Shown here one piece after another: positions 7,336 through 32,000 of a DNA stretch of 32,000 bases. Positions within the stretch are counted from its first letter, which is position 1. Each line of letters opens with the position of its first letter. The DNA is from Parasynechococcus marenigrum WH 8102 (GTDB taxonomy: Bacteria; Cyanobacteriota; Cyanobacteriia; PCC-6307; Cyanobiaceae). The stretch lies in assembly GCF_000195975.1 (NCBI RefSeq), contig NC_005070.1:360001-392000 (forward strand), given 5' to 3'. The notes below the pieces were generated by a model. It was not told the origin of the DNA and did no database searches. It was given only the letters and a program-made list of their open reading frames with translations. The position numbers and the translations under genes were made by a program.

Positions 7336-8616
7336 CTACATTTCATATTTCTCGCCCTTGGCGGCGTCGGTCCAGTCGCAAGCGAAGCCCTTGGAGCTGG
7401 GCTCGAACTGGTTCCAGGCCTGAGGAGCCACAGGACCATCGGTGGATTCGAGGATCTCGAACTGACCGTCAGCAGTGATCTGACCAATGCGCACGGTCTG
7501 TGAGAGGTGGTGGTTGGGCATCACCTTCACAGGTCCCTGAGGCGCGTCGAACTCGATGCCGACCAGGACTTCACGCACCTTGTCGTCGTCGAAGCTGTTG
7601 GCCTTCTCGACAGCCTTCTTCCACAGGTAGACCATGTTGTAGGCCGACTCCTGGGGGTCAGCGACCTGGCGGTCGGCGCCGTACTTGGCCTTGAAGTCTG
7701 CGGCGAACTTCTTGGATGCCGGGGTGTCGATCGACATCATGTAGTTCCAAGCGCCGTAGTGGCCCTCAAGGAACTCAGAACCGATGGTGCTGATCTCCTC
7801 TTCCGCGATGGAATAGCTCATCACGTAGAAGCCCTTCTTAGGGGTGATACCGGCGTCCTGGATCTGCTTGAAGAAGGCGACGTTCTGGTCACCGTTCAGG
7901 GTGTTGATGATCACGCCTCCCTTAGGGAGAGCTCTCTTGATTTTGGAAATGATCGGAGCAACCTCGGTGTTGCCCAGGGGCAGGTAGTCCTCACCGGCCA
8001 CTTCGCCACCCAGGGACTTGAGCTGTTCCTTGGTGATGGTGTTGGAGGTGCGGGGGAAAACGTAGTCCGAACCCACCAGGAAGAAGGGCTTGCCAGCGGC
8101 AGGCGACTTCTCATACATGAACTTGGTGGCAGGCTCCGACTGCTGGTTCGGCGTGGCACCGGTGTAAAAGATGTTGTTGGAACACTCCTGACCCTCGTAC
8201 TGAATCGGGTAATAGAGGAAAGCGTTCTTTGACTCGTAGACAGGCAGCATCGCCTTGCGGCTGGCGGAGGTCCAGCCACCGAAGACAACGGGCACCTGGT
8301 CCTGGTCGATCAGCTTCTTGGACTTCTCAGCGAAGGTGGGCCAATCGGAAGCACCGTCCTCGACGATGTATTCGATCTTGTATTTCTTGCCGTCCACTTC
8401 GACACCACCAGCGGCGTTGATCTCATCGATCGCCATTTTCTCGGTGTCCACCAGGGTGGACTCGGAGATGGCCATGGTGCCGGACAGCGAGTGCAGGATG
8501 CCGACGGTGACTGTTGCATCAAATGCATAGGCGCCTCCTGATGAGGAGACTGCGATCAAGGCAAGGGTTCCAGAGCATATTGCACCCTTTGAAAAGCGTG
8601 AAAAAACGTGCATCAA
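7336..8616 (-). CDS. urtA: urea ABC transporter substrate-binding protein UrtA
   Basis: 426-aa ORF with a signal-like N-terminus. Blocks typical of cyanobacterial UrtA are present: GILHSLSGTMAISE, VFGGWTSASRKAMLPV, YYPIQYEGQE, FLVGSDYVFPRT, YSIAEEE. GC-rich codon usage creates long shadow ORFs on both strands. Confidence 0.93.
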   Translation of the reverse strand: MMHVFSRFSKGAICSGTLALIAVSSSGGAYAFDATVTVGILHSLSGTMAISESTLVDTEKMAIDEINAAGGVEVDGKKYKIEYIVEDGASDWPTFAEKSKKLIDQDQVPVVFGGWTSASRKAMLPVYESKNAFLYYPIQYEGQECSNNIFYTGATPNQQSEPATKFMYEKSPAAGKPFFLVGSDYVFPRTSNTITKEQLKSLGGEVAGEDYLPLGNTEVAPIISKIKRALPKGGVIINTLNGDQNVAFFKQIQDAGITPKKGFYVMSYSIAEEEISTIGSEFLEGHYGAWNYMMSIDTPASKKFAADFKAKYGADRQVADPQESAYNMVYLWKKAVEKANSFDDDKVREVLVGIEFDAPQGPVKVMPNHHLSQTVRIGQITADGQFEILESTDGPVAPQAWNQFEPSSKGFACDWTDAAKGEKYEM

Positions 8617-8839: not shown

Positions 8840-9439
8840 GTGTATGACGTTAGCCCTCTCCACGTTTTTCTCTGGATTTCGCCAGTATGTGCCAATAATT
8901 GTGAACTTTTAATATCTAACAATCGCGATGAGCTGGTGAGACTTCTTCGGGAAACTCCTAATAGTCTGGTCATTCCAAAACTTGTATCTGAAGTAGAGGA
9001 TAATTATCCTGCAGATCTGAGTTGTGGTTCAGATCTTTTGTATGGTGGTATTCGGTGGAGTAGCTCTACCCAGCCATTGCTCAGACAGGCACCCTGGCTG
9101 GAAAATCTGCAGATATTGGACCCTGTGACAAAAAGAGGTGGCAATATACTCCGTCTAAGAGGCCCTCTTGTAGCTGTGGGATCGGTTTTTGTGCAGGCTG
9201 ACTTAGATGTAATTAACTCAACAAGAGTCGAGGTTTGCTTCCGTAGAGGCGGTTGGATAGGTCCCCGTCACTCTGGTATCGGGCAAATTAAACTCTTAAA
9301 AGATGTTCGGCAGAGTTTTCCTGCTTGGCTTGATATGACCGTTTTGGATTCACAGCTGCGAATTTGTCGCGGTAATGCAGGAACAACTTTTGCTTTGTTG
9401 AGGCAGAGCGATAAGAGTGTTGCAGAATTCTTGGGCTGA
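8840..9439 (+). CDS. PAP/fibrillin family protein
   Basis: 199-aa ORF with a GTG start. The C-terminal block WLDMTVLDSQLRICRGNAGTTFALLRQ matches the fibrillin signature (LD.TYLD..lRi.RG..G..FvL). Confidence 0.72.
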   Translation: MYDVSPLHVFLWISPVCANNCELLISNNRDELVRLLRETPNSLVIPKLVSEVEDNYPADLSCGSDLLYGGIRWSSSTQPLLRQAPWLENLQILDPVTKRGGNILRLRGPLVAVGSVFVQADLDVINSTRVEVCFRRGGWIGPRHSGIGQIKLLKDVRQSFPAWLDMTVLDSQLRICRGNAGTTFALLRQSDKSVAEFLG

Positions 9440-11092: not shown

Positions 11093-11587
11093 ATGAAGCT
11101 CGTTCTATTTTTATTGCTGGGAAGCATTCTTGCAGCTCCTTCAGCCCACAGTCATGGAGGTCATGACCATGGACCTGGTGATGAAATAATGATTCCAGGC
11201 AGCAACAAAAATGGTATAGAAATCTATCTTTATAGAGATAAGTCATGCGGATGCTGCAAGAAGTGGGGTGCGCGGATGGTTGAAGGTGGATACAAAGTTG
11301 TTGACAATATATCTAACGATATAAATGATTTGAAGATCTCTGAGGGAATTTCTTCTTCATTAGCTTCTTGTCATACTGCTTTTGTGGAGGGCTACTTTAT
11401 TGAAGGTCATGTACCGGGCAAATCAATAGACAAGCTTTTGAGAGATATGCCTGATATTGCTGGCCTTTCGGTCCCAGGGATGCCGCTTGGTTCTCCAGGA
11501 ATGGAGACTTCACAGATGGCTACTCAGAACTATGAAGTTTTGGCTGTAGACTTCGATGGGAAAGCATCAGTATTTGATAGCTATTAG
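11093..11587 (+). CDS. DUF411 (CopG-like) periplasmic metal-binding protein
   Basis: 164 aa with a signal peptide and then a His-rich stretch HSHGGHDHGPGD. DUF411 hallmarks are present: SCGCCKKW, SCHTAFVEGYFIEGHVP, GLSVPGMPLGSPGME. The gene is AT-rich. Confidence 0.88.
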   Translation: MKLVLFLLLGSILAAPSAHSHGGHDHGPGDEIMIPGSNKNGIEIYLYRDKSCGCCKKWGARMVEGGYKVVDNISNDINDLKISEGISSSLASCHTAFVEGYFIEGHVPGKSIDKLLRDMPDIAGLSVPGMPLGSPGMETSQMATQNYEVLAVDFDGKASVFDSY

Positions 11588-14895: not shown

Positions 14896-15657
14896 TTGGT
14901 TAGCTTTAATGTAAAGAGGATTGAATGTGCACGCATTTTGCCAGCCGCCCAGCCGCCTGATAATGAAATACAGCGACTAAACGCTCTCAATGAGTATAGA
15001 ATTCTTGGCACAAAGCCAGAGCAGTCATATGACGACATTACCAATATTGCTTCAAGTGTATGTTCAACCCCAATTGCGCTTCTCAGTTTAATTGATACTG
15101 ATAGACAGTGGTTTAAGTCAAAAGTAGGGGTAGAAATACAAGAGACACCCAGGGATTGGTCTTTTTGCGCCCACGCAATTCATTCATCCGACCCACTCAT
15201 AATCCCAGACGCACTGATGGATGATCGATTCCGTGACAATCCACTTGTATGTGGCGACCCGAATATAAGACTTTATGCAGGTTTTCCTCTTGAAAATAGT
15301 AAGGCATTGAGAGTGGGAACACTATGCGTCATTGATCGAGTACCTCGTCAATTAAACGATAAAGAATGCGGTGTTATGAAAGCTCTCGCAAGGCAGGTGG
15401 TTTCGTTTCTGGAGCTGAGAAAAAAATCGATTAACTTGATTGAATCTTTTTGCGCGCATACTGAAAACAATAGGATGATTTCTACATGCTCTTACTGCCG
15501 GAAAGCCCAAGATAAAAACGGGCACTGGATGCATCTTGACAAATATCTTTCTCTGAGATCAAATTTGAATTTCACTCATGGAATCTGCGATGCATGCATT
15601 GAGCAGCATTTTCCTGAGGTCCTTGATGCCTGGCAAACAGAAGAAGGACGTAATTAA
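14896..15657 (+). CDS. GAF-domain sensor protein with C-terminal CxxC...HGxCxxC module
   Basis: 253 aa. GAF blocks: NEIQRLNALNEYRIL, PIALLSLIDTDRQWFKSKVG, SFCAHAI, DDRFRDNPLV, IRLYAGFPL, VGTLCVID. The C-terminus reads CSYCRKAQDKNGHWMHLDKY...FTHGICDACIEQ. The start is uncertain because there is no in-frame ATG near the 5' end (the track uses TTG). Confidence 0.85.
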   Translation: MVSFNVKRIECARILPAAQPPDNEIQRLNALNEYRILGTKPEQSYDDITNIASSVCSTPIALLSLIDTDRQWFKSKVGVEIQETPRDWSFCAHAIHSSDPLIIPDALMDDRFRDNPLVCGDPNIRLYAGFPLENSKALRVGTLCVIDRVPRQLNDKECGVMKALARQVVSFLELRKKSINLIESFCAHTENNRMISTCSYCRKAQDKNGHWMHLDKYLSLRSNLNFTHGICDACIEQHFPEVLDAWQTEEGRN

Positions 15658-22561: not shown

Positions 22562-23689
22562 TTACGGGATTGAATTTTGCCAGCTCGCGGAGGTGGTTTT
22601 GTAATCAAGGGTGTAAGGTGGAGTCACATATGCAAATGTATGATCGTTGACAAAGGTAATGTCTTCCAAGTCTGCCGTCCTGCTGGTCGATTGATCAGAG
22701 AACTTACTTTGATGTTGTTCTAATATTTTTTCGAGCTCAGCATTGTATCGCCAAGGCCCAAATGTTGAGATCACAGTGTGCTTGTTCTTTGGGAGTGATC
22801 TGAAGTCAATTTCTTTTGTGGTTTCCAGTAAGTTTGCAAAAAAGATAGACGATGATGGGGAAATGAAAAATCCGTTGCATATTCGCGGTGAATTCCATCT
22901 GAACATCAGTGTAGTTGTGCTGTTGCTTCGCAGTAGCGCCTTGAGAAGATGTTTTGTGTATCTTTGTGGGTATAAGTCTGAGTCGAGCCATATGCAGTCA
23001 TTTTTTTGAGCATATGCAACCCGAAATACGTCTGCCTCTATTGCGTAGTGAAAAGCTGTGGTAAAAGAAATAACAAGCTCTGGGCAATGGTTTTTGATGT
23101 AAGTCAAGGCGCTATCTTTGTTGAATAGTTTGATTGGAGCGACCCCGATTGATGTGAATATATTGTTCCAGATTGATGTTATCGCTTGTATTTGCTCTGG
23201 AGGCTTGCCTTGGCTCCAGTATTGAAATGGTTGCCAGGCGCAAGTTTTTTGATTGCCGTCGTAATGATCTTGTTGTGGATCTACCACGTTGTGTGATCGG
23301 AGCCAATGCTCTCTTTTGAGGCTGGTTTTAATTGTGAAAAGTGTTTTCCATAAGCGGTAGTGTTCTGGATCGCTAGGTGGTTGGCACGATTCGGTGGCTG
23401 GCGTTTCCAAATATGAATGAAGCTGTCCAAGTGACAGTTTGTCCTGCGCTTGACGTAGATATCCAGACCAGTCATGTGGATGATGAGCCACTAAACGTTG
23501 TGCATAGTCCAATGCCCTGACATAGTCGCCAGACGCGCGGCAAATATCTGATGCGAGGCTTAGTAAATCGATCTGGTTTGGTTGTTTATCGAGCTCGTTT
23601 TGCAGATTTCTTAATGCTTCGTTGTATTTTTGATTTCTTAGCAAGGCTTTGGTGCTTTCGTTGATTTCTTTGATGCCAACCATGATCAA
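22562..23689 (-). CDS. TPR-repeat plus DXD-motif glycosyltransferase (Gly_transf_sug / OCH1-like)
   Basis: 375 aa. The N-terminal ~90 aa is TPR-like. The C-terminal part carries FQYWSQGKPPEQI, ADVFRVAYA and WLDSDLY (DxD). AT content is markedly higher than in the flanks. Confidence 0.78.
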   Translation of the reverse strand: MIMVGIKEINESTKALLRNQKYNEALRNLQNELDKQPNQIDLLSLASDICRASGDYVRALDYAQRLVAHHPHDWSGYLRQAQDKLSLGQLHSYLETPATESCQPPSDPEHYRLWKTLFTIKTSLKREHWLRSHNVVDPQQDHYDGNQKTCAWQPFQYWSQGKPPEQIQAITSIWNNIFTSIGVAPIKLFNKDSALTYIKNHCPELVISFTTAFHYAIEADVFRVAYAQKNDCIWLDSDLYPQRYTKHLLKALLRSNSTTTLMFRWNSPRICNGFFISPSSSIFFANLLETTKEIDFRSLPKNKHTVISTFGPWRYNAELEKILEQHQSKFSDQSTSRTADLEDITFVNDHTFAYVTPPYTLDYKTTSASWQNSIP

Positions 23690-24300: not shown

Positions 24301-24627
24301 TTGGTGAATTGCCTGGGCGAAAGAATGGCCGCTGATCACGCGCTTCTGAAGGAAGTCGCACTGGAGCTGTGGAACACGACCAAAAAGCTACGGCCTGGGT
24401 TGCCGAAGGCACCGCGCGCTCAGTTGGTGCTCAAAGCTTTGATGATCATTGGCGATGTCAGTGACCAACTGGAAGCAGCCATGGTGCTTGGCTTGATCGC
24501 CGAGCAGGAGCCGGATGATGCGTCCGATCAGCCTGAGGATGGAGAGGACAAAACTGTCGATCAACAGGAGACTGACAGCAGTCGCACGACGCCGCGGGTC
24601 GTCCGCAAGCGCTCCGGTTCGAGCTAA
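24301..24627 (+). CDS. hypothetical acidic protein
   Basis: 108-aa ORF with a TTG start (ATG at 24325, MAADHALL). It is convergent with the glycan operon. Confidence 0.4.
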   Translation: MVNCLGERMAADHALLKEVALELWNTTKKLRPGLPKAPRAQLVLKALMIIGDVSDQLEAAMVLGLIAEQEPDDASDQPEDGEDKTVDQQETDSSRTTPRVVRKRSGSS

Positions 24628-24669
24628 ATCAAGTGTCCCTATCACCCGGCCCAGTTCTGGGTGGTTGGT

Positions 24670-25374
24670 TTAGCTCAGCTGACCACGACTGAGATCCTGA
24701 AGGTCAACGTCGCCATAAAAAAGATCCAGATCATCGCCATAGCGCTCAACGACGAGTTGGACGAGGCCTGGGTCAGCAAAATACTGGCTCACATCACTGT
24801 GGTCGTCGCTCCGGCGACGATTTTTTTCGGGGAGGTTTCCAAGTGATGGAAGCCGCTCTCGTTTCATGCATGTTTCGAGCTGCTGCCAATCGGTCGCCAT
24901 GCTTTCCAGTCGGCCGATGAAGTTGGGTATGAGTTGCCCGTCGAGGCAAAGAATGCTGCTTTGGGGAAGCAAATGCACATCCACTGCAGCATCTACTGTC
25001 CCTGCAATGCACTCCAGAAAAGCAGGAAAGCCCATCTTGTGGCTGAGTCCCATGGCTTGCATTGGTCCTGGAACTTCATCCAATTCTAGAATCTTATTGT
25101 TGTAAGCCGAGACCAGTCGATCGAAAGGGTTGCGCACGAAGCTGAAGCTGAAGTGCGTGCCGCGACGCATACGTGCGGAGTATTTATCCGTCATGGATGT
25201 TTCTCCATGGGTGCCTTTGCTCCAGAAAGCATCTGAGGTTGTACGTGACCCTTGCTCTGGTGAAGTCGTCAGTAACCGACAGAGGCAGGCTTTGATCGAG
25301 CTGTTGGCAACTTTTGGGACTCGGCCATACAGCAAAGGCAGGTCACGAAACTGAATGTAATGACGCTCGTTCAC
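24670..25374 (-). CDS. sulfotransferase, family 2 (carbohydrate sulfotransferase-like)
   Basis: 234 aa. It has the 5'-PSB-like RVPKVANSSIK and the 3'-PB-like FSFVRNPFDRLVSAYNNK. It is a paralogue of 26210..26986. The GTG start overlaps the upstream stop (GTGA). Confidence 0.85.
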   Translation of the reverse strand: MNERHYIQFRDLPLLYGRVPKVANSSIKACLCRLLTTSPEQGSRTTSDAFWSKGTHGETSMTDKYSARMRRGTHFSFSFVRNPFDRLVSAYNNKILELDEVPGPMQAMGLSHKMGFPAFLECIAGTVDAAVDVHLLPQSSILCLDGQLIPNFIGRLESMATDWQQLETCMKRERLPSLGNLPEKNRRRSDDHSDVSQYFADPGLVQLVVERYGDDLDLFYGDVDLQDLSRGQLS

Positions 25375-26213
25375 AGCTCCCAGTAGTCGCTGGGTTTACC
25401 CATGTAAGCCAGCATCTGCTGAGCATCTGGCTCGACGTGACGCAACACTCGGCGTCTTAATCCGTTGTTCCATTCTGGTTTCTCAACGTAGCCACGTCCT
25501 TTTTCGCCAGCCTGGTTCTCCTTGGGTAAAGCGCCATTGGAATCCAGCAGTTTCTTGACCATCGGTCTGACACCCAGGAAGCGAATCATGCTTCGCAGCG
25601 AACGCTTTGGTGAGGTCAGCAGATCTTCAAAGGTCATGCAGTGGATCTGATCATCGGGGTAAAACCGACGGAATGCCGAAAGGCGCTGGTAATACATCGA
25701 ACAGCCCACGATCAGTTTGCGTAGGTGGCGGTCACGCATCAGTTCGCTGAAATCTGCGCAGTCCGGGTTGCGACCCCGGTAGTGGCGCCATTGGGAAACG
25801 ATTCGGTCTAGTGGGTGCCGGACGATATAAATCAACTTCAGATCCGGTAGATAGCGATGCATCAACTCTGGAGTTTTGCTGAATGAATGCAGTCCGCTGG
25901 CGTACATCGTGCTACCTTCTCCCCTCAACGCAAAATCTTTTCCCTTTTTGAATCTCGAGGCATACCAGTCCCAGCCTTTTTTGTAATAACGACCGAAGAA
26001 TTTGGGCTCCTTGGGTTTGCTGATGAAGATATCTGGATGTTGCGGCAGGATTGTGGTCAGTGTTGTTGTGGCGGATTTTGCGGCGCCAATAATGACGAAA
26101 TTAGGGAGAGAGTCACGATGTAGATCCACGATATCGGCATGCTTGCCTCGGAGACCTTTGCGGATCAGTTTCATGGGGCTTGGGGTGGATGGCATGACGT
26201 CAGTGTTGATCAA
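25371..26213 (-). CDS. sulfotransferase, family 1/3 type
   Basis: 280 aa with FVIIGAAKSATTTL (PAPS 5'-phosphosulfate loop), KEPKFF and IYIVRHPLDRIVSQW. The track start is TTG (TTGA overlap). Alternative ATG starts lie at 26195 and 26174. Confidence 0.87.
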   Translation of the reverse strand: MINTDVMPSTPSPMKLIRKGLRGKHADIVDLHRDSLPNFVIIGAAKSATTTLTTILPQHPDIFISKPKEPKFFGRYYKKGWDWYASRFKKGKDFALRGEGSTMYASGLHSFSKTPELMHRYLPDLKLIYIVRHPLDRIVSQWRHYRGRNPDCADFSELMRDRHLRKLIVGCSMYYQRLSAFRRFYPDDQIHCMTFEDLLTSPKRSLRSMIRFLGVRPMVKKLLDSNGALPKENQAGEKGRGYVEKPEWNNGLRRRVLRHVEPDAQQMLAYMGKPSDYWEL

Positions 26214-26986
26214 GCGCTGATTTGTACCCGTTGCCGTTTCTTGGCTTTGACCACACCTCGCTGGAGAGGGGGTAGCTTATTGAGTGGATGGCCATCGAGC
26301 AACAGGTCAAGGCTGTAGTCGCTGTAGAAACGTTTGAAGTCCTGCTCATATCGCTCGATGACCATGTCAATCAATGTTGTGCAATGGAACAAAACGCGAA
26401 TATCACTGCGCCCTTCACGACGGACGTTTTTCTGTGGAATAGCCCCGAGTGTCGGAAGACCCTCCAGTTTCATCCGGCGGCGTAAGCGTCTCCAATGGTC
26501 CGTCATATGTTCCATTCGACCGATGAATTTCGGCACCAATTTGTTGTCTGATAACAACATCTCAGCCTGTGGGCGAACATGATTGTCCATCAGGTCGGGG
26601 TCTGCCTTGCAGACGATCTCAATGAACTGGTCGAAAGCCATGCCATGCCGCAGACCCATTGTTTTCATGGGCAACGGCACATCATCAATTTCCAGAATTT
26701 TGTTGTTGTAAGACGCCACCAGTCGGTCGAATGGGTTGCGCACGAAGCTGAAACTGAAATGGCTGGAACGCAAGCGTCTGGCTTGCTGCGGTGTCACCAG
26801 CTGAGTTTCCCCGTGGGTGTGTTCTCGCCAGAATCGATCCGCCGTGGTCTTGATCCCACCGTCTGGACGCTGGACCAGAAATTTGCAGAGAGCGGATTTG
26901 ATGGAAGAGTTGGCTACTTTCGGTACACGCCCATACAGCAGGGGGATGTCGCGAAACAGGATGAAGTGCCGAGGTGACTTGCTCAT
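26210..26986 (-). CDS. sulfotransferase, family 2 (carbohydrate sulfotransferase-like)
   Basis: 258 aa with RVPKVANSSIK and FSFVRNPFDRLVASYNNK. The ATG overlaps the stop of the neuB-fusion gene (ATGA). Confidence 0.85.
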   Translation of the reverse strand: MSKSPRHFILFRDIPLLYGRVPKVANSSIKSALCKFLVQRPDGGIKTTADRFWREHTHGETQLVTPQQARRLRSSHFSFSFVRNPFDRLVASYNNKILEIDDVPLPMKTMGLRHGMAFDQFIEIVCKADPDLMDNHVRPQAEMLLSDNKLVPKFIGRMEHMTDHWRRLRRRMKLEGLPTLGAIPQKNVRREGRSDIRVLFHCTTLIDMVIERYEQDFKRFYSDYSLDLLLDGHPLNKLPPLQRGVVKAKKRQRVQISA

Positions 26987-29247
26987 GCCCCCGCCGCTGC
27001 TTCCAGGCGTTCAAGGGCCAGCCAGGCACCCTCACCCCCGTTCTTATGACCTTGCCAGATCTCCGGAATGAACGAGGCCTTTGGGCAGTGGTGATGAATC
27101 TGCTCGAACAACTGCACCCAGTCGATGTCACCGTCGTTGATCTGCAATCCTTCACCGTCAACATCTTTGGCATCGGCTAGATGCAGATGTGCTGTAAACG
27201 GCAGGATCTGATCGAGGAACTGACGGAATGGAATGTGCAGATGATTGCAGGCGAGTTTTGAGTGGGAGACATCCAGGCAGACCCTCATCCCCTGCTCCTT
27301 ACAGAACTGATGGATAAAGTCGGAATCCACAAACAGGTTGTGGAAGCGTTGCCCACCGAAGTGCCAGGGGAAGGGGGGCATCGTCTGTGGAATGATCTCC
27401 ACTTCACCAGCGGTGTTGAGTTGCTGCAGGCTCGCAATCAGCCGCTCGCGCAGGGGCTCACGCTCGCTGCGGGAGAGGTGATGGTGTTCAGAGAAGCCGC
27501 CCACATTGGTCACCAGCAACACTGGATCCGGGCACTGGAATCGGGTTCTGAGATCACTGGAGATGTCGATCACCCGCTGCAGTTCCGCGATCGAGTGGTC
27601 CCGATAGCTCGAATCTTCTGTGCAGAGGTCCAAGGTGTGGTCGCCGGCGAACAGTTCCGGTGCGTGAACCACCAGGCCGATGCCCTGCCGATTGGGTAAG
27701 ACCTGGTCAAGATCCACCTCAAGGTCCTTGTAGCTGAGGTGGATCTCCACCAGATCGAGGTTGCTGACCTGTGAGAACACCTTGATGTCGTGGTAACGAA
27801 CGGGCAGACCAAACGGTTGTTTGAACCGGTAGTGGCGTGGAGTCGCCGCCGGTGTTTCCAGATCGGATGGGAAGAACACCTCTCCCTGAGCCTTGGCCAC
27901 AGGTAAGCGTCGACCGATCAGATCGTTCAGCCGGTTGGGTTGCAGACCCTGGCCCGGGCTCTGGATGCGAACCATCGCTTCGGTGATCTCCGTCCCGGCC
28001 GGTACATCACAGGCCGCCACAAGGCTTTTAGCCAGCACCTCACGGTTCATCATCTCGCCCTGGCTGATGCTGCGTTCGCCGCCCTGGCCCATGGATTCCT
28101 CCACCCGCCGGATGCCCTGCATCATCTGAGCGAATTCATCCGGCAACAGGCTCACTTTGTGGTCGTTTCCCTCCATGCCCCGATCGATGGTGATGTGTTT
28201 TTCGATCACCGCTGCCCCCATCGCCACCGCCGCAATCGGCACCTCAATTCCCCGTTCATGACCGGAGTAGCCGACCGGTGCATCCGCCAATTCCTTCAGG
28301 CGCTCTAGATAGCGCAGGTTGACGTCCTTGAACGGCGTTGGATAGGTGGAATTGCAGTGCAGCAGCACGTAGTTCGCCCCCTCCTGCTGCAGGTGACGGA
28401 TGCCGGAGCGGATCTCCAGTTCGCTGGCCATGCCGGTGGAGCAGATCAGCGGTTTGCCGGTGGCGGCCAACTGGCTGATCAGGGCGTGATTGGTGAAGTC
28501 GGCGGAGGCCACCTTGAACCCCTCCATACCCCAGCCATTCAGCTTCTCCAGGCTGGTCTCATCCCAGGGGGTACAGAGCGGCACGAGCCCTTTTGAGGCG
28601 GCGTAGTCGAAACAGCGGAACAACTCATCGTCACTGAGCTGGAACCGTTCCAGCAGATCCAAGGTGTATTGGGTCCCCAGATCCGAGGCCATGTCGTTGC
28701 TGTCGCCGGCGTTGCTGTACAGCTTCGACATGTCCCTCATCTGGAACTTGGCGCAGTCCGCACCAGCCGAGTGGGCGGCATCGATCAGCTGTAGGGCAAT
28801 GCTGATATCGCCGTTGTGGTTGTTGCCGATCTCGGCGATCACGAAGCTCGGTTCGCCATCGCCGATGCGGCGGGAGCCCAACTGCAAACCGTCCGTGGCC
28901 GGTAATGCAACCGCCACGATCCGTCCGTGGCTGTCCAGCAGTGGTAGGGCAATGATCCGCGACGTCAGCAGGCTGGAAAGTTCTCCGGGGGGAGTGCCCT
29001 CTGCGGCGCTGCGGCAGTTGGGGTTCATCGCCGCCGTTACCGGACGGTTCAAATCGATGTCACCGCAACCGGCAATCCAGCGACGGAAATCGCCATCGGT
29101 AAGAACACCCTGCAAGATGCCGGACTCCGACACCACGAAAATCAGCCGCGACCGGTTGGCGGTGATCTTGCTGAGGGCGGAGAGGATTGTGTCTTCAGCG
29201 AATACGACGAACTGAGTGAAGTTCCTCTCGATCTGGATACCCTTCAC
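26983..29247 (-). CDS. neuB: CBS-pair / nonulosonic (sialic) acid synthase NeuB with SAF domain / xylose-isomerase-like TIM-barrel fusion protein
   Basis: 754 aa. The N-terminus is a CBS pair (LQGVLTDGDFRRWI ... IALPLLDSHGRIVAV). The NeuB core reads FVIAEIGNNHNGDISIALQLIDAAHSAGADCAKFQ ... LHCNSTYPTP ... GYSGHERG ... IEKHITID. The SAF-like segment reads KSLVAACDVPAGTEITEAMVRIQSPGQG. The C-terminal ~280 aa carry sugar-phosphate isomerase/AP-endonuclease-2 type motifs (VHAPE..., LDVSHSKL, HLHLADA). Confidence 0.92.
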   Translation of the reverse strand: MKGIQIERNFTQFVVFAEDTILSALSKITANRSRLIFVVSESGILQGVLTDGDFRRWIAGCGDIDLNRPVTAAMNPNCRSAAEGTPPGELSSLLTSRIIALPLLDSHGRIVAVALPATDGLQLGSRRIGDGEPSFVIAEIGNNHNGDISIALQLIDAAHSAGADCAKFQMRDMSKLYSNAGDSNDMASDLGTQYTLDLLERFQLSDDELFRCFDYAASKGLVPLCTPWDETSLEKLNGWGMEGFKVASADFTNHALISQLAATGKPLICSTGMASELEIRSGIRHLQQEGANYVLLHCNSTYPTPFKDVNLRYLERLKELADAPVGYSGHERGIEVPIAAVAMGAAVIEKHITIDRGMEGNDHKVSLLPDEFAQMMQGIRRVEESMGQGGERSISQGEMMNREVLAKSLVAACDVPAGTEITEAMVRIQSPGQGLQPNRLNDLIGRRLPVAKAQGEVFFPSDLETPAATPRHYRFKQPFGLPVRYHDIKVFSQVSNLDLVEIHLSYKDLEVDLDQVLPNRQGIGLVVHAPELFAGDHTLDLCTEDSSYRDHSIAELQRVIDISSDLRTRFQCPDPVLLVTNVGGFSEHHHLSRSEREPLRERLIASLQQLNTAGEVEIIPQTMPPFPWHFGGQRFHNLFVDSDFIHQFCKEQGMRVCLDVSHSKLACNHLHIPFRQFLDQILPFTAHLHLADAKDVDGEGLQINDGDIDWVQLFEQIHHHCPKASFIPEIWQGHKNGGEGAWLALERLEAAAGA

Positions 29248-29285
29248 AATTCGCCCCGCAGGTGCCTAAGCAGAACCTGTGGACA

Positions 29286-30599
29286 CTACCCCACGTCCCT
29301 GTAGGTCAGGCTCAGCAGCAGGCGCCTGATGATGCGGTTCCGTTGCTGTACTGCACGCAGCCGACGGGCCACATTGCGATGGGTCGGTCGCATCAGGCTT
29401 CCGAGTTGCAACAGGCTCTGGGCTTCCTCCCAATTCTTTTGACCGATGGCTTGCTCAGCGTCGCGTCGCAGCTGGGTGAAGCTGAGATTGGCGTTAGAGA
29501 GATATCCGGATGTTGTGCTGAGGCGTTCAGGTGGATCGGCACGCAGCTGGCCTAAAGCCTCGATCAGATCCACAGGGTCGAGATTCGTGCCGTATCCCAT
29601 CCAGGCCAGCCAGTCGGCGTCCGGCGAAGGCAGTGAACGATCAAGAGCATCAAGGTCCTCGACCTGATCAAGGCAGCGCCAAACACCCGAACCTGCAAAG
29701 ACATGGCTGCCATTGGCAGGATTGATGCCGAAATCGGCCATCACCAAAGGCCTGCAACCCATATCCAATGCGTCGAAGAAGGCGGTTGAGGAGATGGTGG
29801 CCGTCAACCTGGCCTGACGCAGCAAGTCGGGCAAAGGCCGATAGTCGAATCGCAGGTTGTCGGGGGGGTGGCCAAGGGCCTGCTGCAATGTGGTGCTGAT
29901 GTGGTCTGTGATGCTGTGGAAGGTTGCCTCCCCGGGGGCAATACGCGGTTTGATCAACACCTCCCAGTCCGGGGAACGCCGGGCAAGGTCCGCCAAAATC
30001 CGCACCATCTCAGCGCGGTCTGCAGGACTGGACGGCATCACCACCTGTTCTGCAAACACCAGTTGCTTGCGCCTCTGTTCTTGGTCGAGGAGCTGATCAT
30101 CTGAGATCTCCTGGCGGTGCAATCCGGTGAGAACCGTGCGCTGACCGGCAAACGGACTTCCCTCCAGCATTCGGTCCAGCGCCTCACGATCCCGAGGGCC
30201 ACTGAGGCAGACGAGGTCGTAACCCAGCCGCCAGCTCATGCCTTCCATGAACTTCTCCAGCACAACGCCGTTGAATCCGCAGAACAACAACGGTCGCTCA
30301 CGACTGGGCAGCAATCCCAACGCCAGTCGGAAATCACTGATTTTGCTGCCGGTGAGGTAGACGCCAATGGCATCGAAGTGGAGCAGCTCGGAGTGAGTCA
30401 GCAACTGCCCCATGTCCAGCCGCCAGAGATCACCAAGGGCAGCAGCCCGCTGCAGTATCGAATCGGGTGTTCCCTCACGCGGGATGGCGTTGATGGTGAC
30501 CTGAACGTTGAGGTCCGACGGGAAGCGACATAGCGCTTCACAGGCCAACAATTGGCTGTCGCTGTCTCCGATCAGCAGCAGTTTGAACGGATCGTTCAT
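29286..30599 (-). CDS. uncharacterised protein, paralogue family member 3 (possible two-Rossmann glycosyltransferase-like)
   Basis: 437 aa, clearly paralogous to 30596..31651. Aligned segments: LLLIGDSDSQLLACEAL vs ILLVSDDDSSALACQLL; SPDWEVLIKPR vs SPEWSVVIQRD; ISSTAFFDALDMGCRPLVMADFGI vs VSSPWSLTAMAWGRPTLLIGDYGI; FAGSG vs FFGSG. It has an extra C-terminal ~90 aa with a basic tail. Confidence 0.8.
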   Translation of the reverse strand: MNDPFKLLLIGDSDSQLLACEALCRFPSDLNVQVTINAIPREGTPDSILQRAAALGDLWRLDMGQLLTHSELLHFDAIGVYLTGSKISDFRLALGLLPSRERPLLFCGFNGVVLEKFMEGMSWRLGYDLVCLSGPRDREALDRMLEGSPFAGQRTVLTGLHRQEISDDQLLDQEQRRKQLVFAEQVVMPSSPADRAEMVRILADLARRSPDWEVLIKPRIAPGEATFHSITDHISTTLQQALGHPPDNLRFDYRPLPDLLRQARLTATISSTAFFDALDMGCRPLVMADFGINPANGSHVFAGSGVWRCLDQVEDLDALDRSLPSPDADWLAWMGYGTNLDPVDLIEALGQLRADPPERLSTTSGYLSNANLSFTQLRRDAEQAIGQKNWEEAQSLLQLGSLMRPTHRNVARRLRAVQQRNRIIRRLLLSLTYRDVG

Positions 30600-31651
30600 G
30601 GCAGCAACTCCTCCAGGCGGCGGATCAGGCGCGCGGCGCCGTCATGCACCCCCCAGCCCATGGACTGCAGCCAGGACGTGTTGACGGGTGGCACATCCAG
30701 CAGTTGATCCAAGTGGTCGATCGACTGCAGGCGATGCATCAGTCCGCTGCCGAAGAACGTCGTTGTGCCTTGATCGGAGTGGATGCCGTAATCGCCGATG
30801 AGCAGGGTTGGCCGGCCCCAGGCCATGGCGGTCAGGCTCCAGGGGGAGCTGACGCAGAGACAGGCACTGCAGCTAGCCAGCTGGGTCAAGAGCTGACCAG
30901 GTGCACCAAACACCAGATTGTCGGGGAAGGTCCAATCGCTGGATTGGAACTTAGAGATCCAAGGCTGACCTTTCTCCCAGGCGTGGTCGCGTTGGATCAC
31001 AACCGACCACTCGGGGGACGTTTCGGCCCAGCGGATCAATTGCCGCAGCAACTGTGCTTTGGCACCGATCTGGGTGGGGATGGCCTCCTGAACCAAGGCG
31101 AGCAGGGTATGAGGTGGTTGTGGTGTTCCCCCATTGAGAGCTCCGAGGGGAGGACGTTCCGGAGAAAACCAATGCCCGATCGCCTCGATTGATGGACTGG
31201 CCACGCTCTCGGGCCAGAACTGTGTGATCGCTTCAAGCTCCCGTCGCTGACGATCTCCTGGCACCACCAACAGATCACAGCATTGGCTGTCGCATAGCTG
31301 ACGCACCAGGCTGTCGCCGAGGGAGGCCTGGAGAGGACCGCTGAACACCAGAGCTGGCCGCACACCACGCTGCCGTGCGAGGTCCCGGTGAGCATGGGTA
31401 AAGCGCTCAAGTTGGTCGCTGCGACGGATGAACAACCCAACGGCGCTGGCGGACTCCAACAGCTCATGGCCCAGCAGATCCATCAGGGTCAGTGGGATTT
31501 GCGGGGTGACGGAAGGCAGAGGGCTGTCTCGGCGTGAGGACAGTGCCGGTCCAATGGTCAGACAGGTCTGGCCGCAGCGTTCCAGCTGCTGTTGCAGCAG
31601 CTGGCAGGCCAGAGCGCTGCTGTCGTCATCACTGACCAGAAGGATCGTCAT
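30596..31651 (-). CDS. uncharacterised protein, paralogue family member 2
   Basis: 351 aa from the ATG at 31651, which overlaps the upstream stop (ATGA). The track GTG start at 31666 is less likely. The downstream ATGA overlap is at 30596-30599. Confidence 0.8.
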   Translation of the reverse strand: MTILLVSDDDSSALACQLLQQQLERCGQTCLTIGPALSSRRDSPLPSVTPQIPLTLMDLLGHELLESASAVGLFIRRSDQLERFTHAHRDLARQRGVRPALVFSGPLQASLGDSLVRQLCDSQCCDLLVVPGDRQRRELEAITQFWPESVASPSIEAIGHWFSPERPPLGALNGGTPQPPHTLLALVQEAIPTQIGAKAQLLRQLIRWAETSPEWSVVIQRDHAWEKGQPWISKFQSSDWTFPDNLVFGAPGQLLTQLASCSACLCVSSPWSLTAMAWGRPTLLIGDYGIHSDQGTTTFFGSGLMHRLQSIDHLDQLLDVPPVNTSWLQSMGWGVHDGAARLIRRLEELLP

Positions 31652-32000
31652 CGCTCCCTTAGCCACCGAGACAACCAGCCGAAGCCCACCAGCCCATCGC
31701 GGAGTCGGCGCAGAAGGGTGCGGGTTTTATGCCGTTTTTGCTGGCTGGAGCGCGCGCCACCACTGCTGAGCATGCGGCGGCCGCCGTGACGGATGGCATA
31801 GGTCTGCCAGCTGCGGCTGCCCCAGCTGCCTGGTCCAAGGCCATCGGTTGGCAACGGGGGCCGGTCGCCATGCAGTTGTTTCAACAGGGCTGACAGAAAG
31901 ATCTCCTGCCCCTCGGGTTGGTGGCCGTGGCGTTGCAACCAGTCGACCTTGTGAACGGGTGTGAACGGGTCACGACAGATTGCGGCGAAGTCCGCAACGG
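31648..32000 (-). CDS. uncharacterised protein, paralogue family member 1 (C-terminal part; gene runs off the right edge)
   Basis: The frame is open from base 32000. The C-terminal block PVHKVDWLQRHGHQPEGQEIFLSALLKQLHGDRPP aligns with PDADWLAWMGYGTNLDPVDLIEALGQLRADPP (member 3) and NTSWLQSMGWG (member 2). It has a basic tail like member 3. Confidence 0.7.
   Translation of the reverse strand, partial: VADFAAICRDPFTPVHKVDWLQRHGHQPEGQEIFLSALLKQLHGDRPPLPTDGLGPGSWGSRSWQTYAIRHGGRRMLSSGGARSSQQKRHKTRTLLRRLRDGLVGFGWLSRWLRER

Follow-up and report, generated by a model that had tools for sequence, protein, structure and literature searches.

An eight-gene operon of marine Synechococcus linking a NeuB-type synthase to three sulfotransferases: candidate polymer-specific region of a group 2-like capsule locus

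Introduction

What would a marine picocyanobacterium make with an operon that joins a NeuB-type nonulosonic acid synthase to three sulfotransferases? The question is raised by positions 24670-32000 of a 32,000-nucleotide (nt) stretch of the Parasynechococcus marenigrum WH 8102 genome (the window; all coordinates are those of the whole stretch unless a related locus is named). A preliminary description of this DNA, made from its letters, had proposed a pathway for a sulfated, sialic acid-like surface glycan and had set the locus apart from textbook capsule types. Few phototrophs on Earth are as abundant as marine Synechococcus, whose outermost glycans are poorly known. In the present analysis, gene content, domain families, folds, synteny and the linkage of NeuB to sulfotransferases were computed directly. 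The locus is real and previously uncharacterised, and it is conserved across marine Synechococcus and many Cyanobium; judging from its sequence, its product is very probably a lipid-anchored, capsule-like surface polymer of a sialic acid-like sugar, bearing sulfate. On balance, we favour the reading that the operon is the polymer-specific region of a group 2-like (K-antigen-like) capsule locus of marine Synechococcus and directs the synthesis of a sulfated nonulosonate polymer.

Results

Organization of the operon

According to the open reading frame (ORF) calls, the minus strand of positions 24670-32000 holds six complete genes and the 3' end of a seventh (Table 1). These represent the 3' seven-eighths of an eight-gene operon, predicted to encode a CMP-nonulosonate synthetase, three DUF6716 proteins (D1, D2 and D3), a CBS-NeuB-SAF-TIM barrel fusion and three sulfotransferases (ST2a, ST1 and ST2b). 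Two of the 4-nt overlaps were read directly on the minus strand, where the start of ST2a overlaps the stop of the NeuB fusion (ATGA, 26986-26983) and the GTG start of ST2b overlaps the stop of the upstream ST1 (GTGA, 25374-25371), while those at 30596-30599 and 31648-31651 were deduced from the gene coordinates; the sole sizeable intergenic gap in the window spans 29248-29285 (38 nt). The head-to-tail layout of seven minus-strand genes given in the preliminary description was thus confirmed, as was its statement that the operon runs past position 32000, since further sequence from related loci places a predicted neuA-type CMP-nonulosonate synthetase as the first gene. A promoter and terminator scan, which was not decisive on co-transcription, yielded no sigma-70-like promoter and no convincing internal terminator within the operon, terminator-like sites occurring at chance level. 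None of the operon proteins has a hydrophobic segment, which suggests that synthesis and sulfation would proceed at the cytoplasmic side, as in ABC transporter-dependent pathways. The 754-amino acid (aa) fusion protein recurs unchanged in numerous public contigs, among them the complete genome GCA_001182765.1 / LN847356.1 (which we take to be that of Synechococcus sp. WH8103), to which the window is 99.5% identical; several other assemblies match the window at 99.99-100% identity.

Table 1. Coordinates of the operon genes, of the regions of the NeuB fusion and of other features of the window
Feature	Position	Strand	Remarks
Sulfotransferase ST2b, Sulfotransfer_2, last operon gene	24670..25374	-	234 aa, GTG start
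Sulfotransferase ST1, Sulfotransfer_1/3	25371..26213	-	280 aa from TTG 26213; 274 aa from ATG 26195
Sulfotransferase ST2a, Sulfotransfer_2	26210..26986	-	258 aa
NeuB fusion, 754 aa	26983..29247	-	CBS-NeuB-SAF-TIM barrel, four domains
C-terminal xylose isomerase-like TIM barrel, aa 471-754 (284 aa)	26983..27837	-	Pfam AP_endonuc_2 7e-17
NeuB + SAF core, aa 119-470, predicted PEP-dependent nonulosonic acid synthase	27838..28893	-	Pfam
N-terminal CBS region, aa 1-118	28894..29247	-	Pfam CBS 4.8e-7
DUF6716 paralogue D3	29286..30599	-	437 aa
DUF6716 paralogue D2	30596..31651	-	351 aa from ATG 31651; ORF open to 31666
DUF6716 paralogue D1, 3' end	31648..32000	-	last 116 codons; full 435 aa, ~955 nt past window end
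Tyrosine-recombinase (integrase) fragment, 303 aa	3372-4283		
Peripla_BP_5 substrate-binding protein	7336-8616		
PAP_fibrillin protein	8840-9439		
DUF411 protein	11093-11587		
GAF protein	14896-15657		

Capsule-type genes flanking the operon

The flanks were read in the related loci L001, L002 and L012, which extend past the window end (a window coordinate equals 39248 minus the L001 coordinate). The first operon gene, located 26 nt upstream of D1, encodes a 226-aa cytidylyltransferase of the CTP_transf_3 family. Divergently oriented, at about 30-50 bp from it, is a gene for a 655-661-aa KpsC-like protein (Capsule_synth 4.3e-78, four matched stretches), then one for a 670-675-aa protein in which the N-terminal 390 aa match NCBIfam KpsS (5.5e-82; 276 bits, under the 600-bit equivalog cut-off) and the C-terminus is a PlsC-type acyltransferase. 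There follow an acyl carrier protein (ACP) and a beta-ketoacyl-ACP synthase (KAS), a GNAT N-acyltransferase resembling the C-terminal part of OlsF, an outer-membrane polysaccharide export (OPX) protein and purB. The OPX gene (Poly_export 1.2e-17, SLBB 3.2e-16), about 7 kb away, adjoins the GNAT gene and keeps this position in 20+ loci. We rejected ACP and KAS as housekeeping acpP and fabF, because they score below the NCBIfam cut-offs (ACP 40-50 bits against 66-106 for the ACP models, KAS 374 against 494 for fabF), are less conserved than purB and are missing at this place in freshwater Cyanobium; from their sequences, they read as dedicated paralogues. In L002 (33-3532) and L012 (13978-17779), the ACP and a KAS-II-like protein, encoded between the KpsS-PlsC fusion and the GNAT and OPX genes, resemble a dedicated lipid-anchor module.

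The position of KpsC, KpsS and OPX beside the operon argues that it is the variable region of a group 2-like capsule locus. Of the genes that characterise group 2 loci, KpsC/KpsS and OPX are present, while KpsM, KpsT and KpsE are not in the locus. Consequently, the preliminary description erred in excluding a textbook capsule type, as the locus resembles the serotype-specific region of a group 2 or K-antigen-type locus. Among the genes that it had suggested looking for on a longer contig, a neuA-type gene and, as exporter component, OPX were recovered; neuC, pse and leg genes and Wzx/Wzy were not, nor were KpsM and KpsT within 10 kb. More precisely, the Pfam assignments of the 20-kb locus include no Wzx flippase, Wzy polymerase or PCP protein.

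Conservation and exchange of the operon

In a scan for KpsC with one genome per species, 80 loci were retrieved and annotated by tblastn. About 25 picocyanobacterial species share the order purB / OPX / GNAT / ACP-KAS / KpsS-acyltransferase / KpsC and, divergently, NeuA / D1 / D2 / D3 / NeuB fusion, with 50-90% protein identity, and such a recurrence indicates that the arrangement is not due to chance. The carriers are marine Synechococcus, several Cyanobium and "Prochlorococcaceae" metagenome-assembled genomes (MAGs), and a genome labelled Aphanothece stagnina. Wherever sequence beyond the NeuB fusion is available, the fusion is directly followed, in the same orientation, by one or more sulfotransferase genes (23/23 loci), which bears out the co-occurrence in picocyanobacteria that the preliminary description had wished to see surveyed. 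The sulfotransferase sets vary: (i) ST2, ST1 and ST2, (ii) ST2 and ST1, (iii) ST2 alone, and (iv) ST1 alone or with a GT61 and a further sulfotransferase.

Some loci depart from this scheme or add to it. In L061 (labelled Aphanothece stagnina) and L064 (uncultured cyanobacterium), the KpsC gene points the same way as the NeuA operon and the KpsS gene is turned around; at the tail of the L061 operon stand a GT61-like gene and another Sulfotransfer_1-type gene, unlike the first. Organism labels of MAGs, for instance "Pseudanabaena" for L060, may reflect binning errors. A 316-aa ORF without Pfam match (L012 2341-3291), not found in the strain of the window, has homologues in L006, L011, L013, L014, L016, L019, L023, L025, L029, L058 and L063; in many Synechococcus and Cyanobium it either separates the NeuB fusion from the first sulfotransferase or follows the sulfotransferases. 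Downstream in L006 (15336-20979), genes for an 898-915-aa repeat protein and a BNR_2/BNR_3 (sialidase-like) protein were seen, the latter a possible nonulosonate-cleaving enzyme.

About 27 freshwater Cyanobium loci (L034-L060, e.g. L052 1033-9350) retain KpsC, KpsS-acyltransferase, GNAT and OPX, with the block from NeuA to the sulfotransferases replaced by genes for KpsM, KpsT, a 410-aa protein (possibly KpsE-like), a 690-aa GT2, a PhyH dioxygenase and a radical-SAM protein. This block is a second, different capsule "serotype" region. With a conserved assembly and export module joined to an exchangeable polymer-specific region, the locus behaves as capsule loci do. KpsM and KpsT are present in the freshwater Cyanobium loci and in proteobacterial ones; neither they nor the 410-aa Cyanobium protein gave a tblastn match in the window or, within 10 kb of KpsC, in marine-type loci.

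The predicted nonulosonic acid synthase

The NeuB-type synthase recognised in the preliminary description was borne out by Pfam, by NCBIfam family matches and by relatives in the PDB, and is in fact a four-domain fusion. Its catalytic TIM barrel followed by SAF, both scoring above the Pfam gathering thresholds (NeuB 3.5e-80, 269.4 bits, cut-off 22.1; SAF 2.6e-9, 37.9 bits, cut-off 21), makes it a member of the NeuB family, whose enzymes condense PEP with an aldose into a 9-carbon 2-keto-3-deoxy acid. The matches in the PDB are near-equal (N. meningitidis NeuB 164 bits, B. subtilis SpsE 156, PseI 154) and the core is 31-34% identical in pairwise comparison to alphaproteobacterial NeuBs; PDB matches, NCBIfam scores and pairwise comparison did not discriminate among Neu5Ac, Leg, Pse and Kdn as the product class. 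The N-terminal CBS region weakly resembles the CBS portion of arabinose-5-phosphate isomerases (KpsF/GutQ).

For the C-terminal TIM barrel, a sequence search of the PDB found no relative. In Foldseek, its AlphaFold model (pLDDT 91.7) came closest to the L-xylulose-5-phosphate 3-epimerase UlaE, to D-tagatose 3-epimerase-like proteins and to YcjR, a keto-sugar epimerase (TM 0.62-0.70); in an alignment of 30 homologues, many positions hold an invariant Glu, His or Asp. From this modelled fold, we predict a metal-dependent sugar or sugar-phosphate epimerase/isomerase. The barrel has 869 homologues which, among the matches listed, are mostly fused to NeuB and/or SAF and labelled "N-acetylneuraminate synthase". 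In one metagenomic contig (L006 11351-13652), gene calling splits the NeuB part and the barrel into two genes. Because the locus has no neuC, no pse or leg amino-sugar genes and no phosphatase, a reasonable guess is a non-aminated, Kdn-like product, made from a sugar given by the fused epimerase/isomerase. Sialic acid proper, as the product, is therefore not borne out, and the nonulosonate may be Kdn-like or of another kind.

The three sulfotransferases

The description of the last three genes as sulfotransferases of two classes, using 3'-phosphoadenosine 5'-phosphosulfate (PAPS), held in Pfam searches, with all three ORFs above the gathering cut-offs of 22-27 bits: ST2b matches PF03567 at 5.4e-40 (138.5 bits, profile positions 1-251 of 252), ST2a matches the same family at 2.8e-35 (123.1 bits), and ST1 matches PF13469 (Sulfotransfer_3) at 6.2e-19 and PF00685 (Sulfotransfer_1) at 1.1e-17 (69.6/64.7 bits). 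PAPS is bound by a 5'-phosphosulfate-binding loop, PKxxxS/T, and a 3'-phosphate-binding motif, RxPxxRxxS. Both are intact in the three translations, as VPKVANSSIK and RNPFDRLVS/RNPFDRLVA in the two Sulfotransfer_2 proteins (in ST2b, GRVPKVANSSIK and FVRNPFDRLVSAY, respectively) and as AAKSATTT and RHPLDRIVS in ST1. ST2a and ST2b are 52% identical, and ST2a has no sequence relative in the PDB. Among solved structures, ST1 comes closest to the heparan-sulfate 3-O-sulfotransferases 1/3/5 and to the sulfotransferase domain of NDST (1e-15 to 5e-8); in the alignment with 3-OST-1, the PAPS-binding and catalytic-Glu segments of that enzyme correspond to IIGAAKSATT, KEPKFF and IVRHPLDRIVS of ST1, with KEPKFF opposite EVHFF, which we take to hold the catalytic Glu.

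The DUF6716 paralogues

The triplicated protein, listed as of unknown function in the preliminary description, does comprise three paralogues (D3 is 25% identical to D2, E 5e-11, and 30% to D1, E 2e-28) and does have a family, Pfam PF20471 (DUF6716), named "putative glycosyltransferase" and of GT-B fold. Against a cut-off of 27, D3 scores 180.5 bits (5.6e-53), D2 62.4 bits (4.7e-17) and the full copy of D1 (L001/L002 6293-7600) 197.2 bits (4.8e-58). No PDB protein is similar to D3 in sequence; its AlphaFold model (pLDDT 78.4) has the two-Rossmann GT-B fold and, by Foldseek, matches GT-B glycosyltransferases and UDP-GlcNAc 2-epimerases at TM 0.5-0.6, with probability 1.0 to many GT-B enzymes. 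The two-Rossmann fold is also that of the bacterial sialyltransferases GT38/GT52/GT80, a group characterised in addition by D/E-D/E-G and H-P motifs. In Pfam, DUF6716 and Capsule_synth, the family of the CMP-Kdo-using KpsC and KpsS, match each other weakly and reciprocally (D3 to Capsule_synth, 0.0024). An exhaustive profile search returned 906 cluster representatives at E<=1e-3, and the named members, from Streptomyces, several Alphaproteobacteria and Cyanobium, are all called "DUF6716 putative glycosyltransferase" or "hypothetical".

Starting from a profile search and going on to the encoding contigs, seven non-cyanobacterial neighbourhoods of DUF6716 were compiled. In six of them the gene adjoins a CMP-nonulosonate synthetase, and in five NeuB as well; DUF6716 is therefore likely, from its fold and gene neighbourhood, to be the nonulosonate transferase family of these systems. 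A DUF6716 / NeuB / CTP_transf_3 / DUF6716 cassette occurs in Methylopila, Chelatococcus, Croceicoccus and one metagenomic contig; some of its cytidylyltransferases show a HAD-phosphatase signature, and Methylopila adds a mannose-6-phosphate isomerase-type cupin. Stappia has two DUF6716 genes with two NeuB genes, a cytidylyltransferase, PseB/PseC-like genes and a KpsM/KpsT-like transporter, and in a second metagenomic contig DUF6716 stands beside a cytidylyltransferase and PseB/C-like genes. We also followed a lead to the Kdn-teichulosonic acid genes of Streptomyces (SCO4879-4881), which could not be connected with DUF6716; one Streptomyces DUF6716 gene has no NeuB neighbour.

Downstream boundary and the rest of the window

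A TIGR03894-family gene (24301-24627, plus strand) converges on ST2b, leaving 42 nt between the stop codons, and a short hairpin lies in this spacer at 24649-24662. Beyond it, positions 22562-23689 encode a 375-aa protein with N-terminal tetratricopeptide (TPR) repeats, TPR being its sole Pfam match; its C-terminal segment EADVFRVAYAQKNDCIWLDSDLYP is reminiscent of the DXD region of GT32-type glycosyltransferases, a match that Pfam did not give. Both genes were considered as parts of the system and rejected, being present only in the WH8102/WH8103-like loci L001-L005. As they are confined to these loci and the other 22 kb are island-like, we place the end of the conserved system at position 24670. 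Positions 1-24000 resemble a strain-specific island, with many small ORFs, a GC content down to 0.44 and no tRNA gene in that interval; the recognisable features there are listed in Table 1.

Discussion

How might these genes act together? The fused TIM-barrel epimerase/isomerase would supply or adjust a sugar substrate, which the NeuB core would condense with phosphoenolpyruvate (PEP) into a nonulosonic acid, possibly non-aminated and Kdn-like. The product of the first operon gene, to judge from its family, would activate this acid to its CMP form. Likewise by family, the divergently encoded KpsS and KpsC would prime with a beta-Kdo linker a lipid acceptor, possibly provided by the neighbouring ACP, KAS and acyltransferase genes. 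The three soluble GT-B DUF6716 proteins may then transfer or polymerise CMP-nonulosonate onto the primer, as their fold and gene neighbourhood suggest, and the three soluble PAPS-dependent sulfotransferases may O-sulfate the chain, on the cytoplasmic face, at up to three positions. For export, an inner-membrane transporter encoded away from the locus would act with the OPX protein encoded nearby. Sulfate may go onto the nonulosonate itself. The narrower proposal that marine Synechococcus and their brackish and freshwater relatives are coated with a lipid-anchored nonulosonate chain, homopolymeric or oligomeric and possibly Kdn-like, is one that we put forward tentatively, as a possibility on the unlikely side. 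In it, the acid would be made by a synthase with its own sugar epimerase, DUF6716 would be a family of CMP-nonulosonate transferases/polymerases not recognised before, and the first bacterial "sialate" sulfotransferases would O-sulfate the nonulosonate itself.

Several observations weigh against the capsule reading or against particular steps of it. Within 10 kb of KpsC, none of the marine-type loci has a KpsM, KpsT or KpsE homologue, which makes the export route hypothetical, and the literature searched yielded no mention of a capsule in marine Synechococcus. The cytidylyltransferase has PseF as its best NCBIfam match (125 bits), followed by KdsB models, and falls below every equivalog cut-off; the NeuB core is below both of its own (NeuB_NnaB 312 bits, cut-off 399.65; PseI 229 bits, cut-off 340.25), and the locus lacks neuC, pse, leg and phosphatase genes, all of which weighs against assigning a particular sugar. 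As to DUF6716, its alignment profile has no significant match to KpsS or KpsC, each compared as a single sequence (probability <1%); the GT-B match of D3 is generic, with UDP-GlcNAc 2-epimerases as best matches, and gives the fold and not the specificity. By alignment, D2 is without the K-P-R...G-E-x-T-x-H segment that is present in D1, in D3 and across the family, and may be non-catalytic or differently specialised. Finally, one Streptomyces DUF6716 gene has no nonulosonate context.

The missing transporter genes also feed a different explanation, namely that CMP-nonulosonate is transferred onto another surface structure (the O-antigen or core of lipopolysaccharide (LPS), an S-layer or pilin), DUF6716 acting in the manner of FlmG or Maf. 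Some alphaproteobacterial DUF6716 proteins carry TPR repeats, as does the flagellin pseudaminyl-transferase FlmG, which combines TPR with a GT-B fold (PMC7591256), and several alphaproteobacterial DUF6716 contexts have neither KpsC nor KpsS. However, Pfam recognises no TPR domain in the cyanobacterial DUF6716 proteins, the block directly adjoins KpsC and KpsS in every picocyanobacterial locus, and it is swapped as a cassette for another glycan block with KpsMT; we thus hold such a target to be unlikely. That the sulfotransferases serve another acceptor, either a different residue of the chain (the Kdo linker, or a hexose from enzymes encoded elsewhere) or a different molecule, and that no sulfated nonulosonate is formed, seems to us rather improbable. 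In its favour, ST1 is closest to glucosamine 3-O- and N-sulfotransferases. Moreover, sulfotransferases vary by lineage from one to three and in class, with extra genes or a GT61 at the operon tail, and 12 sulfotransferase genes are reported for WH8102 overall (PMC8205485). Nevertheless, the CMP-nonulosonate synthetase is the operon's only sugar-activation gene, and the 23/23 adjacency and translational coupling to neuB point to one and the same product.

The same variability could be taken to mean that the genes are neighbours without a common pathway, the sulfotransferases belonging to a variable island just downstream. Indeed, sulfotransferase sets differ between clades, and the DNA beyond 24670 is strain-specific, being marked by GC dips, small ORFs and an integrase fragment, and its TPR and TIGR03894 genes occur in L001-L005 only. 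This interpretation, which we regard as very improbable, is countered by the start/stop overlaps that couple neuB to ST2a and ST1 to ST2b, and by the sulfotransferase that follows neuB in each of the 23 loci, across marine Synechococcus, Cyanobium and the genome labelled Aphanothece, at 50-90% protein identity. Overall, the polymer-specific region of a group 2-like capsule locus remains the reading that we favour.

In the literature searched, we found no paper on nonulosonic acids, a capsule or this locus in marine Synechococcus, none on DUF6716, no characterisation of the NeuB-TIM barrel fusion and no bacterial sialate sulfotransferase; nor did we find the locus described as an ordinary non-sulfated pathway, an outcome that the preliminary description had allowed for. 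Should sulfate sit on the nonulosonate, the enzymes would be the first bacterial ones known for that, as far as this literature goes. The predicted surface polymer would be strongly anionic, bearing carboxylate and sulfate groups, and such a layer is a candidate phage receptor or shield, a candidate determinant of grazing resistance, a candidate metal binder and a candidate source of the sulfated acidic polysaccharide in marine dissolved and particulate organic matter. In the ocean, a poly-anionic capsule of sulfated nonulosonate would, if it exists, affect phage adsorption and grazing as well as metal binding and the aggregation of particles. The analysis also provides a testable function for DUF6716, as predicted nonulosonate transferase, and for the widespread NeuB-TIM barrel fusion, which databases label merely "N-acetylneuraminate synthase".

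Comparison with known systems

The sulfotransferases of cyanobacteria mostly lie in Wzx/Wzy- or ABC-type polysaccharide clusters, and 12 sulfotransferases have been counted in WH8102 (PMC8205485). The synechan (xss) cluster of Synechocystis PCC 6803, of the Wzx/Wzy type and responsible for a sulfated exopolysaccharide (Maeda et al. 2021, PMC8205485), resembles the present locus as a cyanobacterial polysaccharide cluster with built-in sulfotransferases of two Pfam classes; unlike it, synechan production is Wzx/Wzy-dependent and uses common sugars, and xss has no NeuB, CMP-sugar synthetase, KpsC/KpsS or DUF6716. In vertebrates, the sialate O-sulfotransferases Wscd1/Wscd2 have been described (PMC9304399). 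The reaction would be analogous if sulfate goes onto the nonulosonate, whereas the enzymes of the present locus are Sulfotransfer_1/2/3 members encoded in a bacterial operon.

The alphaproteobacterial cassettes of Methylopila, Chelatococcus, Croceicoccus and Stappia share with our locus the association of DUF6716, often in two copies, with nonulosonate synthesis and activation. They differ from it in that their NeuBs are about 300 aa long, without SAF, CBS or TIM barrel, their cytidylyltransferase is about 390 aa long, and no sulfotransferases were seen. The K-antigen of Sinorhizobium (rkp-1/rkp-3 regions), a capsule-type polymer of ulosonic acids (Kdo, Pse), comes from a non-pathogen, and in rkp KpsS/KpsC-like genes lie beside fatty acid synthase-like genes that are thought to make a special lipid carrier. 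This is matched here by the ACP, KAS, OlsF-like N-acyltransferase and PlsC-like domain that flank KpsS. The glycosyltransferases of rkp are different, and the rkp regions are not known to contain sulfotransferases. In this group, S. fredii NGR234 puts pseudaminic acid in its K-antigen (PMC7591256).

The kps/neu loci for the polysialic acid capsules (group 2, ABC transporter-dependent) of E. coli K1 and N. meningitidis B offer a further comparison; in group 2 systems the polymer is borne by a lyso-phosphatidylglycerol-(Kdo)n terminus. Unlike them, the present locus has no NeuC, NeuD or NeuE, no GT38 NeuS (DUF6716 being found instead) and no KpsM, KpsT, KpsE, KpsF or KpsU; its KpsS is fused to an acyltransferase, and its NeuB to CBS and an epimerase-like TIM barrel. 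To our knowledge, its sulfotransferases have no counterpart in the K1 and N. meningitidis B loci. What the picocyanobacterial locus has in common with these is KpsC/KpsS beside a NeuB-type synthase, a CMP-nonulosonate synthetase and glycosyltransferases, together with a nearby OPX protein, soluble cytoplasmic enzymes and a block that is exchangeable in the way of a serotype region.

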